From Geosiphon pyriformis uo1 (Eukaryota; Fungi; Glomeromycota): a stretch of DNA of 64,000 bases. Made by a program: the position numbers and the translations under genes. Positions 659 to 57,491 of the stretch are shown piece after piece (positions within the stretch are counted from its first letter, which is position 1; each line of letters begins with the position of its first letter). Below the pieces are notes generated by a model. The model did no database searches. It had not been told where the DNA came from and saw only the letters and a program-made list of their open reading frames with translations. The stretch spans positions 458,589-522,588 of the forward strand of contig JAAOMT010000599.1 of the NCBI GenBank assembly GCA_016748015.1, in the 5' to 3' direction.

Positions 659-2460
659 ATGGCCTACACACCAATTGCAAAACTGGATAATTTCACTGGC
701 AAAGAGGACGATGCTCAAGTATGGCTGAACAATATAGAAAAAACCATCACAGCCAATGGATGGAATGACACTCAAGCAATGCAAGCCATTCCCTATTTTC
801 TTAAAGATACCACCAATTCATGGTATCAGAGCTTGATCAATAAACCACAAAACTTCAATGCCTTCAAAGTAGAATTTTTAAGATACTTCAGCAACAATAA
901 CAGTATCAACCACCTAGTCAATACATTCACCATCATGAAGCAAAAAGAAACTGAAGCAGTTATTACTTACCTGGGATGCTTCTATAAAAATCTGTGCCAG
1001 ATCCAGGCAATTGATGCCAACTATTTCACAGCACCACAAATTCTCAACCAGTTTATCCATGGTCTGCGCAGCAGCATCTTACAACATATATGCCCATTGC
1101 ATCTAGACAACCTTCAAGATGCAGTCACACACGCCAGAGATTTTGAATCAGCTGAGTCTGAAGCCAACCACACCCAAGCCATTAATCTAGTAATGAATGA
1201 ATCATCTGAATTGGACTCCAAATTGAAACAATTTAGTGATTCAATTAATCAGAAATTAGAGAAATACTTAGCTGACAATCACACCATTTATCAACCACCA
1301 CAATGATATAATAATCCAGGAAATGCGAATTGTTTCCAAAATCAGTCGTGTCTATCATCATTATCAACAACACCTAATCAGTCGTGACAGCCAGAAATGC
1401 ATGTTTACCACAACTGTGGTAAACAAGGACACATAAGAGCAGACTGCAGATTTTATAGCAACAATACACGATTGGAAAATCAATATTGAAACTCCGATTG
1501 CAGATTTCAGACTCAGAATCACTACCCAAATCAAGACCAATATTAAAACACTTACCTGCCAATGACACAGCAACCAATTTATCAAGTACCAATATATCAA
1601 ACTCCAGTTTATCAACTGCAGCCACCAGCAATATATCAACCACAGCCACCCATAATATATTAACTGCAGCCACAAGTAATCTATCAACCCCAATCAATTC
1701 AGACACCATCTCAGAATTCAGTTAATATGACATCAGGCCACTCCAGACCTAGAATTACACAAAACTGGAGATCAGTAATAGTTGTCTACCAACTGATCCC
1801 CAGTTCTTCTAACTTACCATCAGGATCGTATTCTCGGAATTCAGGTACTAGTGCCACCCAAAACCCGAATTTCCAGAACTATTTAAGTCTCCTGGTTATC
1901 CCAAAAAATGCCACTTTCAACAATTCAGAGACCAACCAACAAGCAACACTTACCAGCAACATACCTCCAGCCACTGTTACCAATGATGAATCATTAGCAG
2001 CCATCTTTCCTTTTGAACTTGAGGAACCATCCCAATTACCCTTATTTAGTGGAACCACCCTTGAAGAGAAACCCATCATAGCAATGTACACTAATACAAA
2101 AGTAGATGGACACTCTATCAAACTTATCCTTGATAGCAGTTTAGCAGGCAGCATTATCATCAAGCAACTCATGGATCAATTAGATCACCAAGTTGATCAA
2201 GCTGCCAGTGCTAGAATCATTACTGCAGATGGCGCCACAAAAACACCTATTGGCAAAATTGACAACTTTCCAATTAAAGTGAATGGCATTGTTACCCCAT
2301 TAAGGTCTTGGTAATGGAAGCAACGCAGTACCAAGCACTAGTTGGTAATAATTGGCTAGTCAAAACCAACACCATGCTCGACTGGACCATACAAGAACTC
2401 CAGTTCAGTCAGAATGGATGACACACACAGGTATCAGCCACATGTGGCCACTTTAAGACT
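659..2460 (+). pseudogene. gag-pro: Element A gag (capsid, CCHC knuckle, Gln/Pro-rich tail) in frame with aspartic protease
   Basis: The retrotransposon capsid-like ORF 659-1306 continues in the same frame through (Y)HNCGKQGHIRADC (~1405-1447) into ORF 1727-2314, which contains the protease motif LILDSS. Confidence 0.85.
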
Positions 2461-2799
2461 ACCAACTCGTCAGCACCACTAATCGATTTCGAAGAAGAGG
2501 AGACAAAACCTACCTGGGAAGCCTACCAAGTCTCATGGGCCGACCCAGACCACAATGAACTGCTGCCAATACTCTCATAGAACGACAACTCCAAGAAAAA
2601 GCAAAAAAAAGAACTAATCTAGAAGACAAATGATTTGACCTGGACTGACAATGAACAGGAAGAACCATCGAGTTGGGAATGAAAAGAAGAAAAAGGAAAA
2701 AGGAAAAAGGAAAAAAAAAGAGGAAGAAAACACTCAAGCCAACAATACTTATATCCCATACACATATGGTCAACCACAATCATTGGCCTATCACCGACC

Positions 2800-3430
2800 C
2801 AAATTAATATGCATTGATTGTGGCAAGAAATTGTCATCAATGGGCGCATGCTGTGGTGACAATGAGGAGTATTCAATAGCAACTAAATTTTATTGCTGCC
2901 CATGCATCCTAGAACGTTTTGGGAGACCAACACGAGTAAAAAAAATAGAATAATACATCATGTCTAGCTTGTGGAAAGACTCTCTTGGATGAGGAAATGT
3001 GGAACAACATTCCTGAACATGGAGGAACGTGTAACAAAACCTGCCAGTATATCATTTTAATAAACAATTGAGTACATAAAAAAACTTCCATTGATGACGC
3101 TTGGAAAAGAGCATTGCGACATTTGGAGGAGTACCCACACAATGAACACAAAATTTGGAGAATAGCCAGCACCATGGCAGAAGGCACAACAACCAGCAAA
3201 TTACTGGAAATCAAAAACAACCCACTTACTCTTCCTGAACCTGAGTACATTGTAACTTTTGATGTTTTCGATAACATTAAAGATGATCCTAAGCAATTCC
3301 ACAAGCACTACCAGAACCTGGCACCCACTAGAGAGGAGCAAGAACAACGGCTAGCACAGTTGAATACAAGACTGTGTTGCTATTGTTTAATTCCCAGTGA
3401 CTTTGAATATTGTGACGATTGTGACCTCAT
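2800..3430 (+). pseudogene. Element A Cys-rich putative zinc-binding domain of unknown function
   Basis: CIDCGKKLSSMGAC...YCCPC...CLACG...TCNKTCQY...YPH...CCYCLIPSDFEYCDDC; homologues occur in B, G, H and K1. Confidence 0.7.
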
Positions 3431-5908: not shown

Positions 5909-7285
5909 ATGAACACACAAAAATATTAACAACTTCAATATTATATAGATACTCAACAATTCAAGAAGAAATTATCTCAACCAGAACAAAAGAGGATCAA
6001 ACAACAATCCAAATATTTTATCACTTACTAAAATATACTTTATCAGAAAAATAGAAAAGATTCAGATCAGCCAACCAGAGTAATTACAGAACCAGAAAAA
6101 GAAACAATACTGTTCAATATGCACTCAGATCCAACTGCAGGACATTTTTATAAAGAAGCAACCATAGAAAGAACCAGAAAGAGATACTATTAGCCATCAA
6201 TGTATCCAGACATCATACAATATGTACAAAATTGTGATGCTTGTCAAAGAAGAGGAGGAACAAGACCCAGTGAACTATTAAGACCAATCAAAGTGGGACA
6301 ACCATTTGACCACATTGGAATCAATTTAGTTGGACCATTGACAATTACCAGCAGAGGCAACAGATATATTGCAGTAGCCATGGACTACCTTACAAAATGG
6401 CCAGAAGCAAAAGCAATTCAAAGAGCAGATGCAGAATCCGTTGCCGAATTTGTCCATTAAGATTTGATTTGTCGACATGAATGTCCAAAAGAACTATTAT
6501 CAGACTAAGGAACCCATTTTGTAAATAGAACATTAGCAGAACTAAGCCAAAGATTCGGAATTAAGAGACTACTATCATTACCGTACCATTCACAAACCAA
6601 TGGATTAGTTAAAAGATTTAATAGGACATTGTATAAAACAATAGCAAAACTCAGCCAAGAAAACCAAGACGAATGGAATTTGTTTATACCATCCATACTA
6701 TTTGCTTATCAGACAATGAAACAAGACACTACACAAGCAACACTATTTGAATTAATATACAGTAGAACAGCAACACTACCAGTCGAGATAGAAGTTAACA
6801 CTTATCCAACAGAACCAATAACTGTAGACAATTTTCAGGAAATGTTACTAAGAAGAACATATGATTTGATGGAAGTTTTAGAAAACAAGCAATAAAGAGC
6901 AGCTGATAACATTAAAAAAGCACAAGAGAAACAAAAAGAGAGGCATGATAACCAACTACCAAACAAACCAGTTGAATTCAAGATTGGAGACAAAGTACTT
7001 TTATATCGTACTAAAGCAGAAAAACAATGGAGTGAGAAATTTGACCCCAAATGAGACAGACCATTTCACATAGAAAAAATTCTAGGAAATGGAGCTTACA
7101 AATTAAGACTGGACAACAGAATCTTAGCCAAAGCAGCACATGGTAATCAACTAAAACCATATCACCAGATAGCATCAGCATCTATCAATAACATTCCACA
7201 ACTGGGAGTACAAAGAATACTAGTCCAATCAGATAAGATTCCACAAGACCTGGAACCAATCATAATTATTAGACCAAACATGTAA
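5909..7285 (+). pseudogene. int: Element A integrase encoded as a separate ORF
   Basis: ATG at 5909. HSDPTAGH...CDAC zinc motif, LVGP...DYLTKWPEA, SD*GTHF, QTNGLVKRFN and GPF-type C-terminus all lie in one frame to TAA 7283-7285. Confidence 0.9.
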
Positions 7286-7344
7286 AATTGAACAACAAAA
7301 GAGTATATAAAGACATGGTCGACATGACAAAAGATACCAGAAAA

Positions 7345-7968
7345 ATGGAAATAACCGACAACATCCACTCACTAGCACAACAACTCTTTCAATTGATCCA
7401 ACACCAAGAAATAGAAATTACAATCAATCAACAAACCATTTGTTACAAAAATAGGACAAAGATACCACAACACAAAGCACAGAAAAGACTTGAAAATATT
7501 GTTGACAAGATCATAACCAAGATAAAATTGGCCATAAACGAATAACAAATAGTCAGATTATACCAAAAACTTATCAGAGAAACTTGGACTTGGTAGACAC
7601 AACAATTTCTGAAAAACTATTGTCATTTTTACTTGGGACAACACGTAAATATTTGGAATTTGTACACTGACAAAACAAAACGGTTATTCAACACAACAAT
7701 ACTAAGACAACTGGAACAATTTATGGGAAAGAACAATCTAATCACACAAGCTTGAGCCATTTACCGACTATATATGGGATTTCAAGACCGACCAGAAATT
7801 TTACTTAACACAGCAATGGATACAGTTACAAGTAATCAATTGGGAAAAATGACCAATGCCCAATTTAAAGAACTACAAACTAAAATAACACAAGTAATAC
7901 TCAAAAAAAAAGTTCAAGAAATAATTTAAGAAGGGAAATTAAAGAAATTAGATTTTGACAGAGCTTAA
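7345..7968 (+). pseudogene. Element A 3' accessory ORF (ORF3), unknown function
   Basis: About 200 codons in one frame with mutational stops (MEITDNIH...AIYRLY...LDFDRA*). It is homologous to the 3' ORFs of D, F, K1, K2 and the remnant in G. Confidence 0.75.
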
Positions 7969-7972
7969 TATT

Positions 7973-7987
7973 AAAAGAAAGGAATAA
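7973..7987 (+). promoter_or_regulatory. Polypurine tract of element A
   Basis: AAAAGAAAGGAATAA immediately precedes the LTR start TGTTAC at 7988. Confidence 0.75.
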
Positions 7988-8831
7988 TGTTACTTATAGA
8001 ATATAGAAAATATAGTACTATTAGTCAGTAGATATTAGCCAATCAGATGTAGATGTAGTAAATATGGAATTCCAGAATTCCTCTCAGAGGAATTACAGAA
8101 TTCCAGAAATTTCAGGATTTCCCGATGAGGAAATGCAGGGTTCCAGAATTCCAGGATTCCTCTCATCAAGAATCTCAGGATTTCTGTCACAATTGAGGAA
8201 TCTCAATTATGTATATATAGTAGTAGAATTAGAAGCTAAAAAGACAGACCTTTCAAGTTTAGATTTAATCTAAGCAACTCTCCAAATTACAACCATCTAA
8301 TAAATAACTATTTGTTATCTTAAATCCATTTCCACTATCAACACTTCATGTTGATAGTAATCAACACTTAACTATACTGGAACAATAATTTTTGATCATG
8401 GCTATTGACAGAATACTAACTTGCAAATTATCTTGGCTTATTTCTTTTTTTTTTTTATTTTCTTTTCTTTTCTTTATTTTCTTGCTTTGATTTTATTGTT
8501 GTTTACTAATTCTATTGAAGATTAATGCATGTAGCACTGACATTAGGATAAATGTGACTGGTAAAAGACCCAGGAATAAGGGTAAAACACTTGATTGAGG
8601 ATAGCTTACCAAGAGGAATACCAGCCATCAAGCTAAGAAAGAAATTGACAAAACTGCAGTTTCGGAAAGCTATGGATAAAACTATCACCATTGAATCTCT
8701 GTTCATTATACAAAGAACTCAACCAAAACTTTCAGATAAAATACCTTCAGATTATCATCGTCACCAATAGCTTTGAGCACCAAGTTACAGGTTTGTTATT
8801 TAATCCAACAACCAAATAGCCACCTGTAACA
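7988..8831 (+). repeat. 3' LTR of element A
   Basis: TGTTAC...GTAACA termini, GGAATTCC-rich repeats at ~8065-8205, and a downstream half homologous to the LTR of B (13346-~13900, reverse strand). Confidence 0.9.
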
Positions 8832-8889
8832 ACAGGTTGAAATAATTTCTCCTTTGTCAACAATTTTTTTCTCCACCATATTAACTGGT

Positions 8890-9330: not shown

Positions 9331-12300
9331 TGCTCCTTGGTAAGATCTGGAAGTGCAATATATTGTTTAGAGTTTGAATTGGAGTTTGAATCTGAGTTAA
9401 CATCATTGTTATTTTGAACAGAGCTAAAACTGTTATTTTTGTTGTTATCATTGTCGGAATTTAAATCAGGATTGAAAACTGATTCCAATTCCGATGTGCA
9501 GCTGCTGATTGGTTTTTCTTTCTCTGGGATTGTGTAGATTATGTGTGGTGGTAAATTGTAAATGAGGTCACACTTATTACAATATTAGAAGTCACAGAGA
9601 ATTAAGCAGTATTGACATAGTTAAGTATTTAACTGCTCTAACTGCTGCTCTTGTTCTTTTTTGGTGGGTGCTAGTTGCTAGTAATGTTCATGAAATTCTT
9701 CTGAATCGTCCTTAATATTGCCAAAGACATTGAACATTTGGACATATTTGGGTTCAGGAAGAAATAGAGAGTTGTTTTTGATTTCTAGTAGTTCACTGGT
9801 TGTTGCGCTTTCTGTTTTTGCATATGCTATTTTCTAGAGTTCATGTTTGTTATGAGGATATCCTTTCAATAATTGCAACACTCTTTTCCAAGCATCATTG
9901 ATTGATGTTCTTTTGTATATCCAGTCATTAATTAGAATTGTATACTGGCACATCTCATCGCATGTTTCTCTTCATCCAGAGATGTCATTTCATATTTCTT
10001 TATCTGGAAGAGTTTCTCCACAAGCCAAGCATGATTCATTGTCCCACTTTCCTTGTCATTTTGGACATCCAAAGCATTCTATGATGCATGCATGGCAATA
10101 GAATTTGGTTGCTGTTGAGTATTCCTCATCATTATTACAACACATGTCTATTGATAACAATCTCTTGCTACAATCAACACATATGAGTTTTGGGCAACAA
10201 TAGTTTGATTGTGGTGTTGTGTAAGTATATGTAGGGTGAGCAGGGGTTGATATTGAATTTTTTTCTTTTCCTTTTTCTTTTATTTTATCTTCTTTCCATT
10301 CTCAAGTTGTTGATAATTTGTTCTGATTGTTGTGAGTTTCCCAGTCTTGGTCAGTATTCCAGGTAAATTTTTCTCTCTGTTTTCTTTTGCTGTTGTCATC
10401 CCATGAAAATATTGGCAGCAGCTCATTGTGCTCTGTATTAGCTCAGGACACTTGGTAGGCTTTCCAGGTAGGTTTCTTTTTTTCTTCCTTGAATTCGATA
10501 AGAGATCCTAGCATGTTGAGAGTTTTGAAATGGCCACACGTGGCTGGTACTCATGTGTGTTAACCATTCTGGCTGAGTTGAAGCTCTTGTGTGTTCCAAT
10601 TAAGTGTCGTGTTGGTTTTGAACAGCCAGTCATTGTCAATGAAGGCTTGATATTGAGTGGCTTCCATAACTAATACTTTGATTGGCACAATAATACCATT
10701 GACTTTTATAGGGAAGTCATCAATCTCACCAATCTGAATTTTGGTTGCTCCATTAGCTGTGATGATTCGTGCACTGGCAGCTTGATCAACTCAGTGACCT
10801 AATTGGTCCATGAGTTGTTTTGTGATAATACTGCCGGCTGATCTACTGTCTAATATTAATTTGATGAAGTGGCCATCAACTTTGGCATTGGTGTATATGA
10901 TGGTGATAAGTTTTTCTTCAAGAGCAGCTCCACTGAATAATGGCATGGCTGACAGTTCCTTGAGTTCAAATAGAAAAATGACATCCAGTGATTTGTTCTC
11001 AGTAATGGTAGCTGGTGGAATGTTGCTAGTAAGTATTGATGATTGGTTGGTTTCTGGATTATTGGGTTGGGTGTCTTCTGGGATAACCAGGAGACTTAAA
11101 TAGTTCTGGGAACTCAGATTTTGAGTATACCCAGTTTCTGAATTCTACTGTTGTGATCCTGACAGCTGGTTGGATGAACTGGAGATTGGTTGGTGAACAA
11201 CCATTGCCGATCTTCAGTTTTGGGTGACTCTTGATCTAAGGTTTCTTAATGTTATTTAAGCTGGGTTTGATGGTAGTGTTTGAACTGTGGGTGTTTGATA
11301 AATTATTTGTGGCTGTGGTGGTTGATATATTATCAGTAACTGTAGTTGATAAACTGGAGATTGATATATGGGTGGTTGATACATTGGTTGTTGCATCATT
11401 GGCAGGTAAGTTGGTTGATATGGTGCTGAGTTGAATTGGTAACTCAGAGTTGGGAACTGGCAATTGGGGTTTCAATATTGATTTCCTGATTATTGGTTAT
11501 TATTATAAAATTAGCAGTCAGCTCTAATGTGGCCTTGTTTACCACAGTTATGGCAGACACACGTCTTTTGTTGCCATGACTGATTTGAAGATGATGATGA
11601 ATGTGACTAATTTTGGAAATAATTTATGTTTCCTGAATTATTGCGTTATTGTGGTGGTTAATAAATTGTGCAATTGTCAGCTAAATATCCTTCCAATTTT
11701 TGATTAATTGAATTACTGAATTGTTTTAATTTGGAATCCAATTCAGATGATCCATTTATTATTAGATTAATGGCTTGGGTATGGCTTGCTTTGAGTTCTG
11801 CTGATTCAAAATCTCTGGCATTTGTAATGGCAATTTGGAGAGTTTGTGAATGCATTGGACATATGTGCTGGAGAAGGCTACTATGCAGTCTATGAATGAA
11901 CTGGTTTAGAATCTGAGGTGCTGTAAAATAGTTGGCTTGAATTGCTTAAATCTGGTGCAAATTTCTGTGGAAACATTCCAAGTAAGTGGTAACTGCTTTA
12001 GTTTCTCCTTGTTTGATTGTGGTAAAGGTGTTGACTAAGTGATTAATGCTGTTGTTATTACTGAAATATCCCAAAAATGCAGTTTTAAATTCCTGGAATG
12101 TTTGAGGTTTAACAATTAAACTCTGATACCATGAGTCAGCAATATCTTGTAGAAAATAGGAAATTGCTTGAAGGGCTCTGTCATCATTTCATTCATTGGT
12201 TGTGATGGCTTTTTCCACATCATTGAGCCATACTTGGGCATCATCTTCTTCACTGGTAAATTTCTCAATTTTGGCAATTGGAGCATAAGCCATTGGTTGT

Positions 12301-13329
12301 TGTTGTGGTTGTTGAACTAGTTGCTAGATAAGTTGCTGTAGTGGTGGCTATTAAAGAGGTATTTGCTGCTGTTGAATCAGTTTAATAATCAGTTCAATTG
12401 GTGGCTGATTGATGACAATATTTAGAAGTAAGTTTTATTGATTAATTAAGTCAGGGTTTTGATCGTTCTGATTTGGCTGTGTTTGAAAATTGGGAGTTTC
12501 AATTTCTGGATTTTCTAAATTTAGATTTTGCTGAGTCTGAAAATTCGGGGTTTCAATGTTTGGGTTCTCTGGGATCGGGTTTTGGTAAGTAAGTTATTGA
12601 TCTTCAGATTCTTTTTCTTGTTCTTTTTCCAAATCCATTACTTCTCAGAAACTTGCAGTTCTGAAATCTGGTTGAGGTAGTGGAAATTGAAGTTCTGATG
12701 GCATTAGAAATCATAACTTAAATCCTTCGAAATACATGCCATATGGTCCTAAAAGATTTTCTTTCCTTTGTTTACTCTGAAATGAGAATCATCCAAAGAT
12801 TGATGTCACATGTGATGTGGACACATCTGTTGATGTAATGTTGATGATGCTTTCAGGTGTGTAGTGGTATGATGGGTTTGTTGATGATTCAACTCTGGTT
12901 TTCTTTTAAGTGAATGGTTGTATTTGTTTTAGTGTCACTGCTGGTGTTTGCAACCTTTCTTTGCCTTTGTCTGCATAGGTAATAGAGAATTGTTGTTGTG
13001 TGTATCTTTCGATGGTTTGGTTGATTTCCCTGATAATTGGTGCGAAACTATAATTTCTTGGTAAGCTGGTGTGTTGAAATAATTCTGTATAGAAATTTTC
13101 TCTTGTAGCTTCAATGTTAACTGTTTCTCTTAAGCAGTCTGTGATTTTATTGTTAACATAGAAGTTAAAGACTGATTCTACTGGGAAATAATTATTGTTC
13201 AATCTTAATTGTTGGCTATACTGTTGAAACAAGGATTTGGTAAATCCTAAATGGTTTGCTCCTATGATTTCTGATTCTGCCACTTTTGGATGATTGTGGT
13301 TGGTGCTGGTTCTCTGTAGAATTATACTT

Positions 13330-13345: not shown

Positions 13346-14224
13346 TGTTACAGGTGATTATTTGGAGTCTTAAAGCAAATAACAAACCCGTAACTTGGTG
13401 CTCAATTGATATAAATAATGTTGGTAATATCTGAAAAATTTTTTGTTGATCTGAAGGTTTGATTGTGGAGTTTTTTGTATAATGGACAGAGAGTTAAGTG
13501 ATGGTTTTATCCATAGCTTTCTGAAACTGCAGTTTCATTAAATTTTTTTTTCAGTATAGTGGCCAGTAATCCTCCTAGTAAGCTATCTTCAAATCTATGA
13601 GTGTTCTACCCTTGTTTTACAGGTCTTTTACCAGTCACTATGACATCTGTATCTCAGTGCTTAATTTTTAATCAATTTAGTAAAACCAAAGAAATAACAA
13701 AAAGAAATAAAAAAAAATAAAATAAATGAAGAAATAAATGAAAGCAATTGCAAGTTAGTATCCTGTCAATAGTCATGATCAAGAGCTATTGTTTCAGTGT
13801 GGTTAAGTATCAATTACTATTAACATAAAGTGCTAATAGTGGAGAGTAAATTGAGATAGTAAATAATTATTTATTGATATTTGTGATGTAGAGAGTTTCT
13901 AACTGATAGATTCTGCCTTTTTATTTCTAATGTTACTGCTATATATACATAATTAATGTTCTATGAGATCGCTCATATTCTCAAGTGATGTGCTATAATT
14001 TTTCAAATAATGCTCACATTGCTGAGCAATGTGTTATATTTTCTTGACATTACTCCACATTGCTGAGTAATGTGCCTTGATTTCTGACATTGTTTTACAT
14101 TGCTGAGCAATGTGCTATGATTTCTGACATTGCTCTATATTGCTGAGCAATATGCTTACATGCTAACTACTACTTACCTATTGGTCTACTATTTTTTATA
14201 TCTGATTTTTTTTTATGAGTAACA
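13346..14224 (-). repeat. 5' LTR of element B
   Basis: TGTTAC/GTAACA termini, adjacent PBS, and a ~40-bp tandem array at ~13975-14160. Confidence 0.9.
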
Positions 14225-15635
14225 GCAACCAGCCTGCTTTTATTTGCTTCTGAGAATGCTCTACATGGTAAAGCACCAGAAAAAAATTTCTCACCAACTG
14301 CACAGCCCAAAGAAATATGATTTAAGTTCTCACACTTAGCACATTTAGTTGGAATAAAATAAGACCAGTGCATATTAGCACTTTTCAGCACAGACATGGT
14401 TTTTATAACTGCATCTAATAATTTAGCAGAATCAAAACAGACAGCAGCACATCTGGCCTAAGCATAAGAAACTGAATGACAGTTAATAATACAAGTTCTT
14501 CTACCAACTGAGATAATATAATTCTAAATATTGTGTGCATTGGTCTTCATTGGCAAAGTATACAATAGTGCTTTGTAAGCATCTCTTATATCTCATGATT
14601 TTTTATTCATATCAGACCTAACAATACACACCATATTCTTCCCAATTAGGATAAACCATTTAACTACAATCAAATCAACATAATTAGTCTGTTCAAATTC
14701 TACTAAAGCTTTCTGTTACAGCCTCACCAATTGCATTTTAATCGACTTAATTGTGCCAAATTCAGAAAGCACAGCCCACACAGTCTCAGCTAATATTCCA
14801 ATTGGAATTTCTTTCAACACAACAGCCCAATCTAAATACACAGTAGATTTCTTAAGATTGGTGTTTACCAAAATATTTGCAGCTCTTGCCTTTTTTACAG
14901 CCTGTGCCAAACTTGATTCAGAAGTGAAAAAGGCACAAACAATTCCAGCAAATTTTGAGGAGGTAGAGACCTCTCCAAAACCATCAACTTTTAAAAACAA
15001 CTTTTTAATAGACACAAGTTTTTCATAAGAAAACTTTTCAGCAATTTTTTCCAGACCAATATTTAGAGCAAAAGATTTTTTGACAAACATATTAACTAGA
15101 TTCTTCAATGGTGGAGAGAAAACTACAGGAACATCCAAAAGAATGTTATCATTATTAACATCACTCAAAAATTTAATTTTACCTAATGGCATACTCAAAG
15201 CTTTTTTTGTTATCAATCTCAGACCTTTTGGCATTTGGTTGGAATTATCTTCATTAAACACATTCCTTTCTTTATAATCCATACTGGTTTCCTCTATTAG
15301 ATACTCTTTTTTCATATTAACATTATCAGATTTGGTAGTATCACCAGCTTCAGATTTTCAAGAACTACTAACTACTTTTTCAGACAAAACAGCTCTATGA
15401 ACAGCACTATCTTTTAGAATACCTCCTTTTTTTTTTTTTCTAGATGCAATATCTTTGTCAACAACACTAGTATCAGCACCAAAATCTTTGACAGACTCCT
15501 TTATCACAGCAATACTACAGCCAATAGTGGTCTTATAATCAAACAAAAAGAGTTTGGATTTATCATACTGAATTGTAAAAAACTTCTTTTAAGAAAAACT
15601 TTTGACTCTTTTTTGGGAATTTTGGATGAAAGAAA
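14225..15635 (-). mobile_element. LINE-like element J1, 5' UTR and ORF1 fragment, interrupted by element B
   Basis: ORF1 fragments (RRM-like EIPIG...EFGTIKSIKMQL; CAKCENLNHISLGC knuckle) are homologous to J2 ORF1. It shares the 5' end motif CCAAAAAAGAGTCAAAAG with J2. Confidence 0.8.
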
Positions 15636-15649
15636 ATTTTTAAATTATT

Positions 15650-16852
15650 AAGTTTTTTTTTTAATAAAATGTTTTATTTGTTGTACTATTTTTTTATAAA
15701 ATACTTATTTAAAATTGTTAATATATAGTGTCTAAATATTTAATTGTTATTTCAAATAATAATAACAATATACTATTAAAAACTGTTTTTTTAACTTTTG
15801 TAGTCTTTTTTTATTAGTTTTTTTAACTTATTATTAGATTTCTGAAAATTTTTTTACTTTTTTAACAAGTTTTTTTGTGTAGTTATTTTCTTATTTTTGA
15901 GTTTTATTGTATAATATCTTCTTAATTGTCTTGTTTTTTTGAATATTTTTATAATAAATTTCTTGTTTATTAATTGTTATTTCTATGTTTAAGTTTTTGG
16001 TTTTTAATATTTAAAATAATTATTGTGTTATTATGTATATTTTATTTGTTATTTTTATTTTTTGTTTTATTTATTACATATACTGATTATATTTATAATA
16101 ATTTTCAGTTTTATAATATATCAACTTTAATAATAATAATTGGTTCTAAATTTTGTAAAATTTTATCTGATTTAATTAATCTTTCTTGTGCTTTTAACTA
16201 AAGTATGTTAAGGTTTGCTAATATTTTACTATAATATAATATTAACTAATTTTTATGTACTGTTTTAGTTAAAATTTTATTTTTTAGTCTTATTTTATAT
16301 GATTTATTTTTTAGTATTTTTTTAATATAAAATAGTCTGTTTTAATTTGAATTAAATTTTTTATTTCATTGATTTTTTGTTTTTATATAATATAAAAATA
16401 TTTGGTTTTTAATTTTAAATTTAGCTAGTTTGTTTAACAATTATTTATTATGTTTTTTTTGTTTTTTTTGTAACTTTAATATAATTTATTGTTTTTTTTG
16501 TTTTTCAAGATTTCTATTAAATTATATATTTGTTTTAATAATATTATTTAAAATATAATATTATTATTTTTTTATTAGTAATATTGCTATTTTGCTATAT
16601 ATTAATTTAAATAATATAACTTAAACAATATTTTGTTTTATTGTTTAATAAGTAAATAATACTAATAATATAAATATGTTTTATTTTTTTTGGTTTTTTT
16701 AACTAATTTTAGTTAATACTTTATATAATATTTTATTAATTTTTTTAATTAAGTTATTTTTTTGTGAATAATATGATAATAATAATAATTATTATTATTA
16801 TTTAATTTTAAATTTTTGACTTAATTTTGTTAATGTTCTGTTTACAAAATAA
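15650..16852 (-). pseudogene. Heavily AT-decayed integrase C-terminus and ORF3 of an A-like element
   Basis: The reverse strand reads FVNRTL at ~16850 and KSDKILQNLEPIIII at ~16130-16180, matching A's QSDKIPQDLEPIIII. Confidence 0.7.
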
Positions 16853-19800
16853 TATTATAAATATATTTAATAAAATAATATTATAATGTTTTAGTGCTTA
16901 AAATTTAGTAATAAGAGCTAAATAGTCTTTAAATAAATTGTGTTTAATTGTTAATAGTTCTATTAGTCTTTAAAAATTTTTTGTTTATAAATTTATCTGT
17001 TGAGTTTTTTTGTTATAAAACACAAAGATGTGTTTTTTATTGTAATATTAATATTATTATTATATTATTCTGTAATAGTTAATTACAATTGCTAAAATTT
17101 AATATTGTTTTTTTGCTCTTTTAATAAGCTAACAAGATAAAGTTAATATTTAAACCTAAAAAAAACTTCTCTTTTTTATTAGACTATTATAAAATCTAAT
17201 CTTAAAACAGTTAATTTTCAATATTGCTATTTTATAAAATAAATAAAAATAAAAGAAAAAAAATTAGTATCTTATTAATTATTATAATTAAAAGCAATTA
17301 ATTTAAGTTGTTAGAATTTTAAAAGCATTATTCTAATTGTATTGATTTAAAATTAAAAATAAGCAAAACAATTAAGTAGATTTCAACAAATAATTTGGTA
17401 AAATTATGTAATTATAAATAAAATAATAATATTTTATTTAATTAATAAAAGATATAAAAAAAACCAAGATAAAAAAAGCTTTTAGATTAAAAATAAAAAT
17501 TTAATTTTTGTATAATTTTTTTTTCTGTCTGTTAAAATTACTTGTTTTTATATATATTTTCTAATTTTATAAAATTGCTTTTAATTATTTGTTATTATTA
17601 ATTATTATTTACTATTTTTAGCTATTACTTTGTTTTTTATATTATAATTAGTTATTTTATATTATTACTAATTATTTTGTATTATTTTGAATTATCTTAT
17701 GTTATCTTATTTTTTTATTTTATTACATAGTATTTACGTTTTTTTTAATAAGTTTTTGATCAATTTTTTACTTAAATAATAATATTTTTTTTTTAAAATT
17801 AAATTTCTGTAAAATCTTCAAAAGTTGTTTTTTTAATATAATGTTTAAATATTATATTAAATATTGTTTTTTATAGTTTTTTGAATTGTAATTGGTTATT
17901 TTTTTAATGTTGTTAACTATAATTGTTTTTATTATACTGTTTAATAATATAATTAAATAGTATTTAAATACTAAATATAATCTGTAAGTTGCTTTATAAT
18001 GTAATATTAGATTGATTTTTTTAAAAAATTGTTTTACTTGTTCCAAAACTTTTTTGTTAAATACTTAATTATTGTTATTTATATATGATATTTATAAATT
18101 TAGTTTTTTATCAATTTTAAAGAACCAATACATTAATAGAAGTTTTTTTTATGTTGTAAAGATTTTTGACATTTATTTTCTAATGTTTAATTCTATTATT
18201 AAATTATTTAAATCTTTTTTTACTTTTTTTATTGTTTAAGTATTAAGGTTTTTTTTGCTTAAAACCAAGTAGATTAAAAATATTTAGTTTTAATTAAATT
18301 TTTATTTGTTTTTTTTTTGCTTATAATTCTGTATTATAATTTTTATTTATTAATAATTACTTTTAAGAAAATTATTAATTATTGTATAGCTTTAAAAAGT
18401 TGTTATAAAAGTTTTAAAATATTATCTAAAATTTTTATAGTAAAATATGTTTACTGTCTTTTAATTTTTCTGGTTATGTTTTTATATTTTTATTATATTA
18501 TAAATTAAATAAATTGTAGTCAACAATAATAATTGGTTTTAGATTTTGTGAAATATTTTTGGATTTAATTAATAAAATTTGTGTTTTTAATTGAAATATA
18601 ATTAATAATAATATTTGTATTATATAATAAAGTTTTAAATAATTTTTATGTGTAGTTTTCTTTAGAATTTTGTTTTTTAATTGTAGTTTATAGACTCTAT
18701 TATCAAGAATTTTATGTATATAAAATAGTTTATTTTACTTTAGATCAAATTTTTTACTCTATTGTTTTTTTGTTTTAGTATAATATAATAATACTTTGGT
18801 TTTAATCTTAAATTTAACTGGTTGGTCAAATAGATAATTGTTATGTCTTTTTTTTTGTTGTTTTTAAGAATTATTAATATTATTAAGTGCTGTTTTGTGA
18901 TTATTTTCTAATGTTTTCATAAACTAGTATGTTTTTTAGTATAAAATAATTTCAAAATTTTTTTTAGCAATTGTTTTTATTAGAAAAAAATATATTTTCA
19001 GTTTAATAAACAGTATAATTATTCTTTTATATACTAATTTAAATAATATAAATTAAATAGTATTTTGCTTTAATATTTGGTATGTAAATAATACTAAGGA
19101 TATAAATAAGTCTTATTCTTGTATATTTTTATAACTTATTTTTGTTAATGCTTTATACAATATTTAGTTAAATTATTTTACTAATTTATTTGTTTGAAAA
19201 TAATATAATAATAATAAAAATTATTTTATTTTAAATTGTTAACTTAGTTTTATAAAAATGCTGTTAATAAAATGAGTTTTTTGATTAAATTATATTTTTT
19301 TTTGATATTTATGTTGACAATCAAATTTTAATATACAAATTCAATTATTGTTTTGGCATTTACAATTTAAATAGCATAAATTTTTGGCTATTTAGTAAAA
19401 TAGTCTATAGCTATTGTAATATATTAATTTTCTTTAAAAATAATTAAAAAAAATTCAATAAAATTAATTTTAATTCTATTAAATAAATTTTCAGCTAGAA
19501 TAAGTTAAAGTAATTTGATTGTTCTACTTCTTTTTTTTTTTTAACAGAAGTTACAATTATAAATATATTTAAAAATATTTTCATATATTATTGACCAATA
19601 ATATAAGTTAATTGTTCTTTATAAAATAGCATTTTTGTTAAAATGTTTGGCAATTAAATTAAAATACATGTTAAACAAGATGGTTTTTTTTTATAATTTG
19701 TTGTAATATGATATGATTTTAACATTTTTATTAATATAACTTTTTATTATAAATAAGATAATTTTAAGTTTGTTTTTAAATAGTACTTTGTTTTTGTTAA

Positions 19801-22211
19801 GATGGTTTTTTTTGGATTAAAATGTTAATAAATATTGGTATAATTGTTAATAAGTAAATGTGTTTATTAATAAAAGATTAAATCTAAGTTATTTTTAATA
19901 AATTGTTAATATTGGTGTTTTTGTTTTTTCTTTATAATATACTTTATAAAAAAATTATTGTAGATAAATATTTTATTTTACATATTTTTTTTCAATTAAG
20001 ATTTATTAAGTAATTATATTAATCTTTTATAATCTGTATATAAGTTAAATAACTAGCAAAAATAATGTTTCCAGTTTTAAACAGCCTAATAAATAGCAAA
20101 ACATTCTAAGTCTGTAATATTATATATTGTTTTGCTGTAATAATACTGTAGTTTGTATAAAAAATAGAACATTTTTGGTTATTAAGTTTAATTTGTAATA
20201 AAATTGTACTTAAGACATTTTTTAAGACATTTATAGCTACAATAAACTATTTATTAAAGTCTAAATATATTAGAATTAAAGCTTTGATAAATTAATATTT
20301 AATATAGTTAAAAACTTTCTGTTGGCTAATTTTTTACATATAAGAAACATATTTTGAAAGTAGATAATAAAAAGTTTAACAATATCTAAAAAACTTTTGA
20401 TAAAATAATAATAATATTTAACAAGTCTTAAAAATTTTTATAATTCTTAGAAATTTTTTGGAACAGAAAAATTTTTAACTTTTTAAACTTTATCTAAATT
20501 GGCTTTATTTTGTTTTTTCTAATAATATGTTTTAGAAATTTAAGCTTGGTTTTTTTAAAAAAACATTTATTAAGATTGAGATTGAATTTTGTATTTTAAA
20601 AATAATTAAAAACTTGTTAAAGATAAAATAGATAATTATCAAATATTTCTGAAAATATGTTGGTATTATTTAGATAAAAAACAATTAATTTTTATAGAAT
20701 TTTTTGTATATAACATTTATCAGATATTAAAAAGTGACTAAGATATTATAGAGTCTAAAAAACATTACATTAAATTCGAAGTTTTCATCTTAAATAGTAA
20801 AAACAGTTTTTTTTTGTCAATTAAGTTTATTTCGACTTGCTAATATTTATTGGCTAAATCTAATTATAAAAACCATTTTTTATTTCCTAAGTTATATAGA
20901 ATTTTTTGAATAAGAAAAGTTAAATAATTATCTTTTCAAGTTATATTATTGAGTTTTTAATAATCAATACAAAAATGTATTTTTTTATTTTCTTTAATAA
21001 TTAAAACAACTGATAAGAATTATAAGCTTAGAAATTTCTTAATTAAATTATTATCTAGTATTTGTTGTACTTTTTGCTTAATTAAGTTGTCTTTATCAAG
21101 ATAATTTAATAAGCTTATTATTTAATAAGTCTAATATTTTTAGTATCAATTTTATATTTTATAATATCAATATATTCAAATTTGTTTTTATTGACAAAAA
21201 TATTAATATATTGGTTTAATAGAACTTTGAATTATATTTGTTAAAAAATATTTAAATTTCAAGATTAAGTTTATTAATTTTTTCTGGAATAAACAAATAA
21301 ATTTTTTTATATTTAAAAAATAATATTGCAAAATAAAAATAGTTAAGCAAAATTAGAAATAGATTAGAATTTTTGAAATTCTAAATGTTTAAAATGTTTA
21401 TAGACTTTAACAGAAATATAAAGATTTAGAATATTAATCAAATAACAGATTTCTGAAATAGCTTTAAACAATAGTGTTTAATTCTGAATTTTTTGTTTAA
21501 TTTTTATAATATACTGTTAGTATAATAGAATTAAAATAATAGTATCAATATAGATAAGTTTTATTTTGTCATTTAATTTTTTTACAAAGTTGATTTGCAT
21601 GTTTTTTTTACTAAATCCAAATTTTTGAATTTTTCTAATAATAAAACCTAATTTTTTTAAGTATTTATTAGAATAAATTAAAAAATTTTAACAAAAAACA
21701 AGAAGATGGCTTAAACAATTTTTTTGTGATTCAATTATATAGAGTTTATTAAAGTTGTTTTGGAATATTATAATAATATTTTCAGTATATTTAGCATTAA
21801 TTATTTCTTTTTTAATATTAATTTTTTTGTTTATAAGACTAAAATAAAATATAATCTGAATTATAGTACTAATAGAGATTTTTAGAACTAATTTAAAATC
21901 TATTTGTATTAAAAAATAGAATACTATAACTACAAAAAATTGTTTGGAGTATTTTAAATTAAATTTAATATTATTTATATGTACTTTTTTTAAATATATT
22001 CTTTTATTATTGTTATTGTATTATTTTAGTTTTAATTCTTTAAAGAAATTAAAACAAGTAAGATATTGTTCTATTTTAATAGCTATATTTGGCTCTTAAA
22101 ATAATATGTATTCTGTAATTAATTTATATTTTTTTTAGGCTTTTTAAATTTAGAAATTAGGTAAAAAATTTAAGATAATAAATTGAAAAAAAATTATATT
22201 TATTATAATAT

Positions 22212-22866
22212 TGTTACGGGTTGGAGTAACAAGCTAACAGATAGCAAGAGAGAACAGGATTGTAGGGTAATGGAAATAATCAAAGGGGAATTTAACTTCA
22301 ATGAGCGAATTGAATGAGTATGGATTCAATGTGTGAGATCAGTCTCATAAAATATCTCAGTCACTATTCTTTTTAAAAGATAACCGGAGAATCTGAAAGT
22401 AGAGGGATAGTCCGTACTGTCAACAATTGATCACCACTGGTATAATTCTATGCCTCACGTTGGCACTCTTAGAATTTAATATCAGATATCAACTTGTGCT
22501 TTTCAGTTACGTTTATTTAAATAGTCTTTAAATACTACAATTATTCAAACAGGAAAAGACCAACAAGTAATTTTTTATCCTAAGATGTTCAGATACTTGA
22601 AGGTAGAGAAAGGAAAATTAGCAATAAGAGAGTGATTGAGATGAAAGTTGTTATTTTTATTTATTTGATTCTTGTCTGAGATATGATTTTCTACAGCTAA
22701 GAGACTTATTGCTTATATAGCTATTGAAAGTGGTCAATGACCAGGTCAATGGTCAGATCATTGATCAGGTCAATGATCACTATCTAAAAATAGAGTGGCT
22801 AATTATATGACATCAGTGGCTACTACATGTGATAACTAATAAAAATTATAGGTTTTAACCATAACA
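22212..22866 (-). repeat. 3' LTR of element D
   Basis: Direct repeat of 29188-29890 with TG...CA ends; the PPT GGAAAGGATAA is adjacent on the minus strand. Confidence 0.95.
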
Positions 22867-23475
22867 TTATCCTTTCCAAAGAGATTGAGCTCTGGCAAAA
22901 TCAAGCTATTTATAGAGTATTCTAATTGAAAGGTTTTGTCTAACTCAAAACTAACTAGTTTGTTGAAGTCTTTTGTGGATAAAGTGTATAGTACTTGAGG
23001 CAAAATAAGCTTTGTATCCAAGAGACCAAACCTTTGTATAAGAGTTTTGGCTCTTCTGGCAATGGTCAAAACTCTTGGGACATCCAACCGTATAATGCCC
23101 AAAATTTCCACTTGTATCTCAGAAGTTGTTTTCTTCATGAGCTTCATGTCTTCTATGATTTCATCAAGGCAACCATAGAGCTCTAGTTGTCTTCCATATG
23201 ACAAGTTTTTGTCTATGGGCAAGATTTCTTTAATTGTTTTTCCAATTGTGGTGGAAGGTACAAGTATTGCTGCTGTTATGCTTTCTAACAGATACTTATC
23301 CATTTTGCTACCAATTTTTTCTCTTTGGTCTGATAACAGTATGAGTTCCACTGTTGTCTGTTATTATGGTCTGTTTTCCAATGATCAGAGTAGTATTTGG
23401 ATAATTTTTGATCCAGTACTCATGGAGAGTGTAGAAAGCATTTTGAATGTTTTGATCTAGGAAATAATTGTTCAT
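22867..23475 (-). pseudogene. Element D 3' accessory ORF (ORF3)
   Basis: MNNYFLDQNIQ...IIGKQTI (ORF 23308-23571) is frameshifted into ORF 22836-23351 (...TIARRAKTLIQRFG...). DFARAQ lies at the PPT in an adjacent frame. Confidence 0.7.
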
Positions 23476-29890: not shown

Positions 29891-30259
29891 ATATTGAAAA
29901 TAAAAAAAATTAAGCAGTAATTACACAATTTTGTATTAAAACTGGTTAGTTTTTGCTTCTGTTTTTTGTAAGTAAAAACAAGTTTTTAGTAATATTTTTA
30001 GAAAATTTTAAAGTTATTAGTAAAAAAAATTTTTTTATTGTTATTATTACAGAAACATTTTTAATAGTATGTATTTTCTTAATAATCATATTTTTTTATT
30101 TTTATTATAGGAATATGTATTTATTTGTTAATTGTTTAATTATAAACAACAACAAACAGAGTTTTTTGTATGTTTAATTGTTAATATATATAATATATTA
30201 ACAAAATTTATCACATATTTTTTTTTTAAAAAATATTATTTTATAGTTTTTTATCTAAT

Positions 30260-31621
30260 AAAATTTTTTTGTATCAAAAAACATATTAGCTTATAGAAAC
30301 ATTAGAAAAAAATTATAAAATAATAGTTAATAATATTAATAATAATAGAAAAGAAGACTAATAATTGTTTATTAAATCAACTAGTTAAATTTAAAATTAA
30401 AAACCAAATGTTGTTATATTATACTAAAGCTAAAAAACAGTATAATAGAAAATTTAACTTAAAGTAAAATAGACTATTTTATATACACAAAGTTCTAAAT
30501 ATAAAGCTTACAAATTATAATTAAAAAACAGAAGTTTAAAGAAAGCTGTACATAAAAATTGTTTAAAAATTTATTACACAACACAAAAATTGTCATTATT
30601 TGTATTTTAACTAGAAACACAAATTTCATTAATTAGACCAAAAAATATATTATGAAATCCAAAACCAATTATTATTATCAAATACAATTTATATATAACA
30701 ATTTAAATTACATAAAATAAATATATAAATACTAAAAAAAACAAAAAAAAGAAATTAATAACACTTTTAATAGAGATTTTTTAAACAAAATCTTAAAACT
30801 TTTAAATAATTATTTAAAACAATTCAATAATTTATAACATTAGTAAAATCACAATTAATAGAAAAAATATAATACAAAAATATAAACAAAAAAAAAGTAA
30901 ACAAAAATTCAATTAGAACTGAGCATTTTTATTCCTATAAACAATTAAAAAAAAAATACATGACTTTATATACTTAAAAAAATAAAAAAAGTCTTAAATA
31001 AGTTAACTATAAAATTAAACACAGAAAAGTAGATACCAAAAACTTTTAAAACTTGAAAAAAAAATTTTACTAGTTTATTGGTTTTTTAAACTTGACAAAA
31101 AACTAGATTTATAGACATCATACTTAGCTATTAACAAACAAATATTCAATAAAGAAGCTTTTAAACAAATAGAAGAATTTGTTGGAAGAAACAACTTAAT
31201 ACTATATTACAAGACAATATACTAACTGTATTCAGTATTTAAATACTGTTTAATCATATTATTAGACAATTTACTAAATACTATTACAATTAACAATATA
31301 GAATAAATAAAAATTTATAGTTTAAAAACTTATAAAAAACAATACTTAACATAATAATTGAATATTATATCAAAAAAACAATTTTTACAAATATATACAA
31401 TTTTGCAAAAACTCAATTCTAAAAAAAAATGTTACTTGAATAAAAAAACCAATTTAAAGCTATTAAAAAAAACGTAATTAATATATAATAATATGGAAAA
31501 AATATAATAATATAAAATAACACAAAAATAATATATAATAACTTAAAATAATATAAGATAATACACAATAATATAAAATAGCATAGAATAATTAATTATA
31601 ATATAAAATAATTAGTTATAA
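30260..31621 (+). mobile_element. AT-decayed K-family fragment K2 (integrase tail, ORF3, start of 3' LTR at 31430), interrupted by E
   Basis: Inverted homolog of ~17600-18960; KQIEEFVGRNNLILYYKTIY*LY in ORF3; TGTTAC at 31430 after a decayed PPT. Confidence 0.72.
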
Positions 31622-34600
31622 TATTATGGTTAAAATCCATAGTTTTTATTAGTTATTACATATATTAGTCATTAATATTATATAATTAACCATCCTATTT
31701 TTAGATAATAATTAATAACTTGATAATTGATTTGATTATTGATTTAATTATTAACCTAATTAATGACTTAATTATTAACTTGATTAATGATCTAGTCATT
31801 GATTATTTTTTAATAGCTATATAAATAATAAATTACTTAACTATAGAAGAACATAATCAAAGTAACAAAATAAAATCCACTATTAATTACTTTTTTTATA
31901 TTGCTTATTCTCTTTTCCCTATTTTTAAGTATTTAAATATTTTAAGATAAAAGATCACTTGTTAATATTCACATATTTTATCTTTTTTTTTTCTTGATTT
32001 ATATTGTTAAAATTAACTTAAAAAATAAGTGTTTGCTTTTGTAATTTCTTAAATAAAGAAACAATTAAAAAGCATAATAATATCTGTTATTAATTTTAAA
32101 AATTGCCAAGTTGAAACATAGAATAATAGCAGTAGTATTATTTTGTTGACAATTACAGACTATTTTTTTACTTTTAGATTTCTAGAAAAGATTTGCAACT
32201 GTAATTTTTATAAGGCTAATTACATATATTAAATCCTTATTTATTTAATTTGCTTCCTTATTGTAATTCTTTTTTTGATTAATTTTATTATCTTACAATT
32301 CTGTTCTCTTTTGCTATTTGTTAACTTGTTATTCCAACTCATAACATAAAAGTAGTGCTCCTTGTAAAGTTGTTAAAATTTACTTATTTCTTTATTGTAT
32401 GGGTGATTATTCATATCTGCCACAATAATCAAAAAAACACTTTGTAGCACACAACAAAAACAACCTAAATTTTATTAAACTTAATTTTTTGTTTTTTTGT
32501 TTAATCTGTTTTCTTGTTAAAAAACAATGTAGTAGACAATTCTAAAATTTTTGAAACTGGTTCTTAAATAAACATTCAGCTAAAACCTATACAGTTTATA
32601 TAATCTATTTTTTTAATTAAGCTTATTTTAAAAAAACTCTTAAAGAAAAAAAAAACAACATTAATTAGTTCTTATATTTAATAATCTTTAAACAACAGCT
32701 TTCTGATTTCGAATATCTGAATTACCAAATTTACATTTGGATTGCTGCTCATTAGTTAATTAAAACATCTTTTAAAACAGAAAAAAAAAGCTACCAAACT
32801 ATTTTTGTTTTTGATTTCTTTTTAAATGAATTAAATCATTTTATATAAACAGCTTCTTTAAACCAATAACTGTTAACTTTATGCAAACAAACATTCTAAC
32901 CACTCTCTAAGATATACAAACTGCTTTAGAGCAAAAAAACAACACTTTACTATTATTATTTAGAAATAATATTTAAGACCTAATCAAATGGTTAAATGAC
33001 TTTAAAAAAGCAGTTACAGCCAACTAATATAATGTTAATTACAAGTTTTAAATCATTGGTGGTTATCTACAAAACTCTCTTGCTATTTGGCTTTTAAAAA
33101 AACCTGATACTAGTGCTTACCAAAAAATTATTAAATAGATACTAACAAATACTGAAAAAAAACATTCTTTTTATTATTCAATTTGAAAATAAATTCAGAA
33201 CTTCAATCTTAATATTTAAATAACACATAAAATTGGAAAAAAGAATCTAAGATTCAAGAAAAATAGTAACTAAATATGCTAAAACAATAAAAAAATTAAT
33301 TAAATAGGTAGATTTTAAAAAAAATTAGACAAAAAAACAAAAAATTTATTTTTTTACAAAAGAATTAAAAACCAACTTATCTTATGTTTTTTGGTCTCTT
33401 TTGGCTCTGAAAAATAATTCTATAATAAATATAATTATTAAATTTGTACAAAAAATAAAAAACAATCAAAGAATGCATTTAAAATTAACACTTTTAGTTT
33501 TTGCTTTTGCTTTTATTCTGGTTTCTGCTTCTTAAATAGCTGCTATCTCTTTTGTTATTCAAATCCAAGACTTCAATAAACAATTAATAGATAAACTTAC
33601 AGTTAATTTTGTTCAGTTATTAAAGTTTTTAGCACAAACAGTCAGAAATAACCAATAAGTACAAAAATTCAGATTTAAATTACATTTTAATCAGTTCTAA
33701 CAACCACTATATTAAAAACAGCAAAATTATGGCTCATCTGTGTATTATTATTGTGGACTAACTAAATATTTTTCAAGAAATTGCAACAATTTTCTATTGC
33801 TTTCTCCAGTTTCTAAAAACAATAATAATTAAAACAATAGATCCAACAACAATAATGTCTTTAATTAAAGACTTAATCATGCCAACATCAATTTCTTTAA
33901 AAAAAATTTCTTAGTTGAAGCCATTGTTAATTAGTTTTTAAACTGGTAAGCATATTTCTAAAGAGTAAAAATACAAGTCAATCAGAAAAAAACTTTTTTT
34001 ATGTTTATAATCTAATTAATAATGACTATAACATAAATGAATTAGCCATCAATTCCTTTAAATTTACAAGAAAAAAAAAGCCAAGATTAATTTTATTTCA
34101 AATTCTAATAAAGTCTTAACTTTTACTGCTAATAACAATAAATCATCAAAAGCCAAAGTTTTTAAAAATTCTTTAAAGTTAAAACTCCCAAAAATTGTAC
34201 AAAAATTTGAATCCTATTCTGTTGTTAAAGGTTTTATCAAAACCCCAGTTTATATTATCTTTGGCCAGTCAATAACTTATTTACAATTCAAAAAAAATCT
34301 TCACAAATTATTAATCCTAAAAAAAAAGATACCAAAAACCAACAAATACTCTTATTAAACTGAACTTGCTAACAATAATAATGTTATTTTTCTAATTTGT
34401 AAAACCCAAATGGCTGGTTATTTTATTAATTTGATTTTAAACAGTAAATTATCTGTTAGCATTATTGTTAAACAATTTTTTAAAGCAATTGGCAAAAAGA
34501 TTGATAAATCATTTACTTAATTAATAATTAATGTACATAGTAATAAAAAAAAAAGTCTAGGCATAGCCAAAACTGTTTCTGTTCACATTAATAATATTAG

Positions 34601-34700
34601 TATTAAAACTAACATGAAAATATCTAAAGCCAAGAAATACACCATAATTGTTAGCAATAAATAACTTAAAAAAGCCAAAGTTTTACTTGACTATGAACTA
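31622..34700 (+). mobile_element. Element E: decayed D-family 5' LTR (31622-32346), PBS, gag and protease
   Basis: Colinear with the reverse complement of D (29890 to ~26820), with most G/C converted to A/T. Confidence 0.88.
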
Positions 34701-45300: not shown

Positions 45301-46153
45301 AAGAAAATTGTTAGTTTTTTGGCCAATAAAATTTTTTCCAAATTTTGAAACCAAAATTTTGATAGCATTTTTACTAAAGTTTTATTTTGCTTTTACAAGT
45401 TGGAAATTTTAATATCTAAGATTATTTAGACTTTATATTTGGACTTTAATTATAAGTTAGATAACTTAATTGCTTATTGATTATTATTTAACAGCTTATG
45501 TACATATTATGTTTAAGATTTTTTGGTATTAGATGCTAATTTTAATACAGTTAGATCTAAGTTAACTAAAGTTTAAAAGATATATTATGTATTCAAGTTA
45601 ACTAAGTTTTAATAAACTAAAATTGTAAAAATTTATGCTATTATTAATAAAAAAAATAAAGAGTTTTAAGATTAATAAAAGCAATATTATCAAAAATGTT
45701 TTAAAGTAGATTATTTAGTAAATAATAAAAATTTGGTATTAGAGTCTAAAAAAATTAAATCTTAAGTAAATTTAATTATAAAAAAATAAATAAGAAAACA
45801 TAAAATATTAAAAAATGTTTTGAATATTTTGTATTAGCAATACTTATTTTTGGCTTATGTAGTTAATAATGTTTTTTTTGTAATTATAAATAAAATTGGT
45901 CTTAATAAAATATTGAATATTGTATTAAAATTAGTAAATAAAAAAGCTTCTGGTTTTTTGAAATATCTAATAAATTTTAGAAATCTTGTAATTTTTTAAT
46001 TCTGAATTTTTTATTAAATTTTCTTAACAGTTGCTTGACAAGTAAATAAGTTTTTTAGTCTTGAAAAAAAATTTGGGTGTTAATAATTCTTAAATTATAT
46101 GAATAAAAAAAGATTTTAATTAATTTAAGACTTATTGTATTAATTAAAACTGT

Positions 46154-47011: not shown

Positions 47012-47117
47012 TTATCCCCTCCTTTTACGATTGAGCTCTATTGAAATCAAAGTTAATTTCTTCATTAAATTCTAAGTTACTATAGTGGTTCAATACTATG
47101 TTATTAATTTGTTGTTG

Positions 47118-53411: not shown

Positions 53412-53481
53412 TTTTGTCTCTTCCTTTTTAGCAATGAATTATTACTAATTATTATTTCCTTTTTGATTTTCTTTTCTTATA

Positions 53482-57489: not shown

Positions 57490-57491
57490 TT

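Follow-up and report, generated by a model that had tools for sequence, protein, structure and literature searches.

At the 3' end of element A, between its integrase and its polypurine tract (PPT), lies a dead copy of a third retrotransposon gene, ORF3, which is read on the strand of the element in a frame other than that of the integrase, belongs to a protein family with further members in the window (the whole 64-kb stretch of Geosiphon pyriformis DNA that was analysed), recurs in an element from a soil metagenome and encodes no membrane segment. ORF3 is an undescribed protein family within a known class, namely that of sense additional, non-Env ORFs. Taken as a whole, our reading is that the copy in element A is the relic of a selected gene for a soluble helical protein, made from its own subgenomic message and acting as a nucleic-acid-binding accessory factor for the LTR DNA or RNA of the element; we put this complete reading forward tentatively.

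Carrier elements and the place of ORF3

The window is filled by nested, decayed LTR elements with the Ty3/gypsy order gag-PR-(usually dUTPase)-RT-RH-IN and, given the order gag-PR-RT-RH-IN, the carriers of ORF3 are Ty3/gypsy LTR retrotransposons. A dUTPase stands between PR and RT in A, B, G, H and K1, while the domain search of the window gave no dUTPase match in element D. In A, D, F and G the PPT is followed by TGTTA, and the LTR pairs stand at 87% in D and 94% in G. The 3' part of element A is arranged as follows:

6170-7285, + strand: core and C-terminal part of the A integrase (SH3_Tf2-1-like), out of frame with ORF3
7315-7974, + strand: ORF3 of element A, dead copy, 70-72% identical to the intact gene models P0002 and P0004
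7961-7987, + strand: GAGCT-Y-A motif and PPT of element A, the natural ORF3 stop lying directly before the PPT
7988-8832, + strand: 3' LTR of element A, by alignment to the LTR of element B

The domain search gave no chromodomain match in the integrase of element A. Its ORF3 has an upstream in-frame Met at 7315 and a second one at 7345, and the frame contains 4 stops in 207 codons, as opposed to 9-18 in the other five frames. Altogether, five premature stops are present, at codons for Gln, Trp or Arg in relatives. As the fifth of these (7966-7968) precedes the natural stop of the family (7972-7974), ORF3 ends at 7974 and not at 7968.

Further ORF3 copies and remnants, together with the three elements that have no 3' part in the window, are:

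15651-16058, - strand: K0, 5' two thirds of a decayed, truncated ORF3 (HMM 72 bits over 16058-15651; 47% identical to P0389 over 59 aa)
17786-18438, - strand: K1, strongly AT-decayed, frameshifted ORF3 (HMM 58 bits over 18373-17819; 44% identical to P0392 over 97 aa)
22836-23475, - strand: ORF3 of element D, with one frameshift near 23325 and its last ~30 nt inside the LTR; probably a remote member
30755-31419, + strand: K2, strongly decayed ORF3 (HMM 63 bits over 30755-31342)
35028-35735, + strand: ORF3 of element F, dead copy, its last codons inside the LTR that starts at 35716 (HMM 194 bits over 35028-35708)
47037-47126, - strand: C-terminal ORF3 remnant of element G (HMM 13 bits over 47126-47043; 93% identical to P0370 over 30 aa)
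13954-8832, - strand: element B, 3' part absent from the window
31618-34710: element E, 3' part absent from the window
56511 to window end, + strand: element H, 3' part absent from the window

A sense ORF3, or a remnant of it, is thus found between integrase and PPT in 7/7 elements that have their 3' end in the window. The initial annotation had assigned such an ORF to all LTR families, and this holds for the seven testable elements, while B, E and H, lacking the 3' part, cannot count. The ORFs and remnants that it had placed are all present, with the ends corrected to 7974 in A, 35735 in F and 22836 in D; in the latter two, ORF3 reads through the PPT into the 3' LTR. Element G has lost most of its ORF3 by an internal deletion, such that the remnant is fused to the integrase core, and a full-length ORF3 of the G type (P0370) is known from elsewhere in the Geosiphon genome.

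Several other features of the window deserve mention. Immediately before the spacer that precedes ORF3, the integrases share the C-terminal tail D-I-P-x-x-L-E-P-I-I/V-I-I, with ends at 7285 (+), ~16110 (-), 18500 (-), 30680 (+) and 34850 (+), as well as at 1-135 of the metagenome contig L002. Extreme AT richness (GC 12-19%) marks 16000-22000, 30000-32000, 42000-46000 and 54000-56000; the stretches at 16000-22000 and 30000-32000 are old elements in which pol and ORF3 can still be made out, which indicates that such copies have undergone massive C-to-T decay. At 34690-34860, element E (a D-like LTR, gag and protease) is directly joined to the integrase tail, ORF3 and LTR of F, which is either a chimera or a nested insertion with deletion, and the LTR of F resembles that of H. 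Long open frames without a Pfam match lie upstream of the capsid domain in G (52560-53438, -), B (12588-13328, -) and H (57488-58138, +), those of G and B aligning with each other at 28%; they may be either extensions of gag at its N-terminus or extra ORFs on the 5' side. Between protease and dUTPase, a long Cys-rich stretch, again without a Pfam match, is present in G (50097-51515, -), H (59312-60760, +), A (2296-3422, +) and B (9570-11108, -), with approximately 40% mutual identity. Finally, the related decayed fragments interspersed among the LTR elements at 14188-15357 (-), 37739-38128 (-), 40727-42072 (-) and 56085-56297 (+) have no Pfam match and look LINE-like by eye.

Members of the family inside and outside the window

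An HMM built from 21 diverged ORF3 members was run on the window, with the reversed window as control (best score 6.8 bits). Element A scored 242 bits and, judged by this profile and the scores listed above, A, K0, K1, K2, F and G are one protein family. The sequence pattern that had been described as common to the families therefore stands for these six, whereas D has no significant local similarity to them. Namely, the comparison of D with the other ORF3s gave at most 2.8 bits in hmmsearch and E 0.13-0.14 in hhalign, with a score of 16.6 against a shuffle maximum of 17.8. The D frame itself is, by its sequence relatives, a real conserved gene family: a stretch of element D shows 100% identity to a G. 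pyriformis gene model across 94% of the query, and the D ORF3 has 122 matches, 20 of which, among the 120 listed, are exactly 218 aa long. Since D resembles the other families faintly but colinearly from end to end, we scored it by global alignment against six lineages, using 400 shuffles, 11 unrelated proteins of the same elements as control, and sequences whose C-terminal tails had been cut off because a conserved DNA signal coincides with part of them. Five D proteins reached z 3.9-5.3 in this trimmed alignment, a level attained by 0/400 shuffles, and the 11 unrelated proteins remained at or below the null range; with the tails left on, D matches globally as well. Note that F1 and P0386 contribute most of the signal (z 4.3 and 5.9), with A, G and P0451 singly giving z 1.2-1.5. 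The predicted D model, of low confidence (pLDDT 39), has a helix, a hairpin and helices in the same order. What is more, the D pol is 41-49% identical to those of A, G, H and L001 and is, together with the decayed K1, the least similar pol, so that the most distant ORF3 parallels a distant pol. All in all, D is probably a true, if remote, member of the ORF3 family.

Outside the window, the close relatives among the matches listed are, every one of them, from Geosiphon pyriformis, where at least 354 distinct 'hypothetical protein' clusters are ORF3 copies (115 + 120 + 120 listed, one shared). Could ORF3 then derive from a host gene family, a piece of which the elements captured or domesticated and now carry along? 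The initial annotation had likened the core to an 'ARKIY.LF' domain expanded in AM-fungal proteomes; by eye, this motif resembles the RAxxRLYxxF helix of ORF3, and the sheer number of Geosiphon gene models in the family (more than 350) would fit such an origin. However, in many of these models ORF3 is joined to integrase, gag or LINE-like sequence (P0073, P0114, P0346, P0395), and for this reason we regard them as element copies. Moreover, a HMMER search with an A+F profile over 1.84 billion representatives returned 118 matches, with 65 of 96 new ids at least 55% identical to Geosiphon references, and the 20 matches looked up consist of 15 Geosiphon gene models and 5 metagenome proteins, with no other AM fungus named among them. 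The proposed link to an AM-fungal domain is not borne out among these 20, although a very remote one is conceivable, and we consider capture from a host gene rather improbable.

Four metagenome proteins (P0383, P0386, P0449 and P0451) are real divergent relatives, and the contigs of two types inform directly on the gene's surroundings. The soil-metagenome contig of P0386, L001, carries RT, RNase H and integrase, then a spacer of 317 nt, an intact ORF3 of 230 aa, a PPT and an LTR, and its pol is 46-56% identical to those of A, D, G and H. In other words, ORF3 is also carried by an element outside the Geosiphon assembly. In L002, the integrase tail is followed by a further ORF and then by an ORF3 that is 84% identical to P0383. 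This second extra ORF (398-811, 137 codons) has no Pfam match and no match in the window, its one, doubtful match being to the gag stretch of P0346. The position of ORF3 is the same in the window elements, L001 and L002, which ties the gene to this position across lineages down to 20-36% ORF3 identity.

Selection on the frame and the GAGCT signal beside the PPT

We believe that ORF3 is, with high probability, a real selected gene. In particular, frames of 218-244 codons are open in lineages that are only 20-36% identical, a run of 200 open codons having a probability of about 1e-7 in DNA of this composition. When the DNA of A is compared with that of K0, K1 and K2, mismatches at codon position 2 are rarer (0.27-0.38 vs 0.40-0.46; p 0.009, 0.019 and 0.032), three tests that all share A and are thus not independent, and the deficit is weaker in ORF3 than in integrase. 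Furthermore, a column that the metagenome pair conserves has a higher chance of being conserved also between A and G, an independent pair (28/59 vs 35/122, p 0.011). That said, three of the four protein-level selection tests are not significant: the comparison of fixed F1/F2 with within-family BLOSUM gave p 0.35, and the site constraint tests p 0.51 and 0.08. Within families, variation is equal at conserved and other columns (0.105 vs 0.109), as expected for neutral decay after insertion. ORF3 also diverges much faster than pol (20-36% vs 41-56% identity). By these sequence measures, constraint on ORF3 is weak, and the gene has likely been inherited with the elements under purifying selection.

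One can argue that the frame is only a by-product of conserved cis-signals near the PPT and has no protein function, and such a signal does exist. In five diverged lineages, the start of the LTR is preceded at a distance of 25-27 nt by a GAGCT-Y-A motif, at the following sites:

7961 (+), 22892 (-), 35691 (+) and 47038 (-) of the window: GAGCT-Y-A motifs of elements A, D, F and G
3092 of L001: GAGCT-Y-A motif of the metagenome element

Four of the five sites contain the palindrome GAGCTC. The motif is translated E-L in D, F and L001, where the ORF3 stop lies inside the LTR, but R/G-A in A and G; being read in two frames, it is conserved as DNA or RNA and not as protein. This and the several non-significant selection tests are what a by-product would lead one to expect. 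Against it, the similarity extends across the whole protein and persists after removal of the tail, the frames have stayed open in lineages that share only 20-36% identity, and a codon periodicity can be seen. We therefore hold a by-product without protein function to be very unlikely.

The predicted protein, its possible role and known systems

The product of ORF3 is predicted to be a soluble helical protein of 200-245 residues, with pI 7.1-9.9, where the basic values may partly stem from AT-rich codon bias. As already proposed before this analysis, it appears not to be Env-like: in 8/8 intact proteins the Kyte-Doolittle mean over 19 residues peaks at 0.27-1.32, which reveals no transmembrane segment. 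That ORF3 might be a membrane or Env-like protein serving the spread from cell to cell is suggested only by its sense orientation and its position, both of which are those of env. Hydropathy windows of at most 1.32 in all eight proteins, a length of about 220 aa, the lack of conserved cysteines in the family and the absence of any viral fold match at E 0.001 in the search with the whole model largely refute this option, and for practical purposes Env is excluded.

AlphaFold2, run on 53 sequences, gave a fair model (pLDDT 77, pTM 0.68) that, along with the family HMM, agrees with the earlier description of a shared, mostly helical accessory ORF. A less certain N-terminal helix and beta-hairpin come first, then a linker predicted to be disordered and, at 52-203, a helical core modelled with confidence (mostly pLDDT 83-94), which closes with a long free C-terminal helix (171-203). 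The conserved core comprises a Y-x-x-I/L-G helix, a second helix, a G-x-T-N turn, an R-L/I-Y-x-x-F helix, short helices and G-K/Q-I/L-T/S. In the model, the Gly-x-Thr-Asn turn before the helix with the near-invariant Arg (R-L/I-Y) is arranged like a three-helix nucleic-acid-binding unit. The suggested fold search, for which the whole model served as query, returned lists filled by generic long helices and no clear fold match; likewise, no Pfam family reached its cutoff and no PDB sequence matched. A ParB-type HTH comparison gave E 0.53, with the single sequence of P1 ParB only.

How would such a protein be made, and what would it do? ORF3 is not an extension of pol, as it is out of the pol frame and 30-320 nt away from integrase, with a further OR​F in between in L002. 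The spacer and the frame would rather suggest separate expression, likely by way of an internal promoter, splicing or reinitiation, and the protein would then probably come from a subgenomic message of its own. A small soluble basic protein with a turn-plus-Arg helix, retained in all of these lineages, may act on the nucleic acid of its own element, as a regulator of transcription or packaging. Ordinary gypsy elements are not known to carry such a gene. On this basis, a nucleic-acid-binding regulator, one of the two roles raised in the initial annotation next to anti-silencing, is a possible, if tentative, assignment.

Nearly as likely, although still doubtful in itself, is a protein-protein adaptor without nucleic-acid binding, which would counter host silencing or aid the movement or nuclear entry of the particle or pre-integration complex in coenocytic hyphae. 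Fast divergence relative to pol fits a host-facing protein; the model has the long free C-terminal helix (171-203) and a separate N-terminal module; the ORF3 copies of the window are strongly AT-decayed, and in R. irregularis transposable elements are described as methylated and producing small RNAs (10.1101/2021.03.30.436303). At the same time, no partner or motif was found for an adaptor, and the turn-plus-Arg helix may fit nucleic-acid contact at least as well.

Returning to the nucleic-acid-binding regulator, the domain that comes closest is DUF1016_N (PF17761), the N-terminal helical domain of YhcG-type PD-(D/E)XK proteins, described as a helical domain without a shown function in the part of the source bearing on it (PMC1189080). 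The likeness is weak but in register over three helices (Y-x-x-IG ... G ... N ... R-x-F/L-Y). Namely, the domain matches 3/53 members with a best E of 0.037, and the core compared with a 10-sequence YhcG N-terminal alignment gives E 0.023 and a score of 21.8, against a maximum of 16.1 among 59 shuffles. However, ORF3 is far below the family cutoff (best 14.6 vs 32.8 bits) and has no nuclease domain, and the likeness, which covers about 60 columns and derives mainly from subfamily F2, is not seen with A or D by themselves (E 0.32 and 0.39). It is conceivable, though improbable, that ORF3 is an ancient DNA-binding accessory protein of bacterial mobile-element ancestry with a DUF1016_N-like three-helix core, which a whole Glomeromycota gypsy clade has kept as an anti-silencing factor or as a regulator acting in trans, and which may recognise GAGCTC by the PPT and have helped the LTR expansion to ~41% of the Geosiphon genome.

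Whatever its role, this undescribed family is tied to the elements behind the LTR expansion in Geosiphon, LTR elements being put at 41.2% of its genome (PMC11952901). At least 354 annotated G. pyriformis 'hypothetical protein' clusters are element gene copies and not host genes, and the intact natural member P0386 of L001 makes a direct functional test possible. A description of the family was not found in the literature searched, which did not extend to the Geosiphon genome paper or repeat databases, and neither Pfam nor the described aORF domains contain a match that would make it a known retrotransposon domain.

As a separate frame on the same strand between pol and the 3' LTR, kept across lineages (7/7 testable elements, L001 and L002), ORF3 is a sense additional ORF (aORF-3S/ORF3). 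It resembles the aORF-3S of other elements, as far as the review excerpts describe them (PMC7264820), in position, orientation, presence in all copies of a lineage and the lack of a host homolog found. The reviewed ones are plant or insect env-like ORFs, some with transmembrane segments, whereas the present ORF3 is fungal, has no such segment and, in D, F and L001, ends only beyond the PPT, inside the LTR. In the bdelloid rotifer elements, as portrayed in the available sections of PMC5408684, a non-Env third ORF likewise occurs in dUTPase-bearing gypsy-like elements, but there the ORF3s are family-specific enzymes (GDSL esterase, DEDDy exonuclease), while the Geosiphon ORF3 has no recognised domain and is common to lineages. 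Grande/Retand (TRP28; PMC11963269) and Boty of Botrytis (PMC7264820), according to the portions of these sources that treat them, also have an accessory ORF in the interval from pol to LTR, with a proposed nuclear or DNA-binding regulatory role; these aORFs are antisense, in contrast to the sense Geosiphon ORF3, which has no Pfam match to their domains. If the binding role is true, ORF3 would stand out as an accessory gene for a regulator on the sense strand, a rarity in a fungal retrotransposon.
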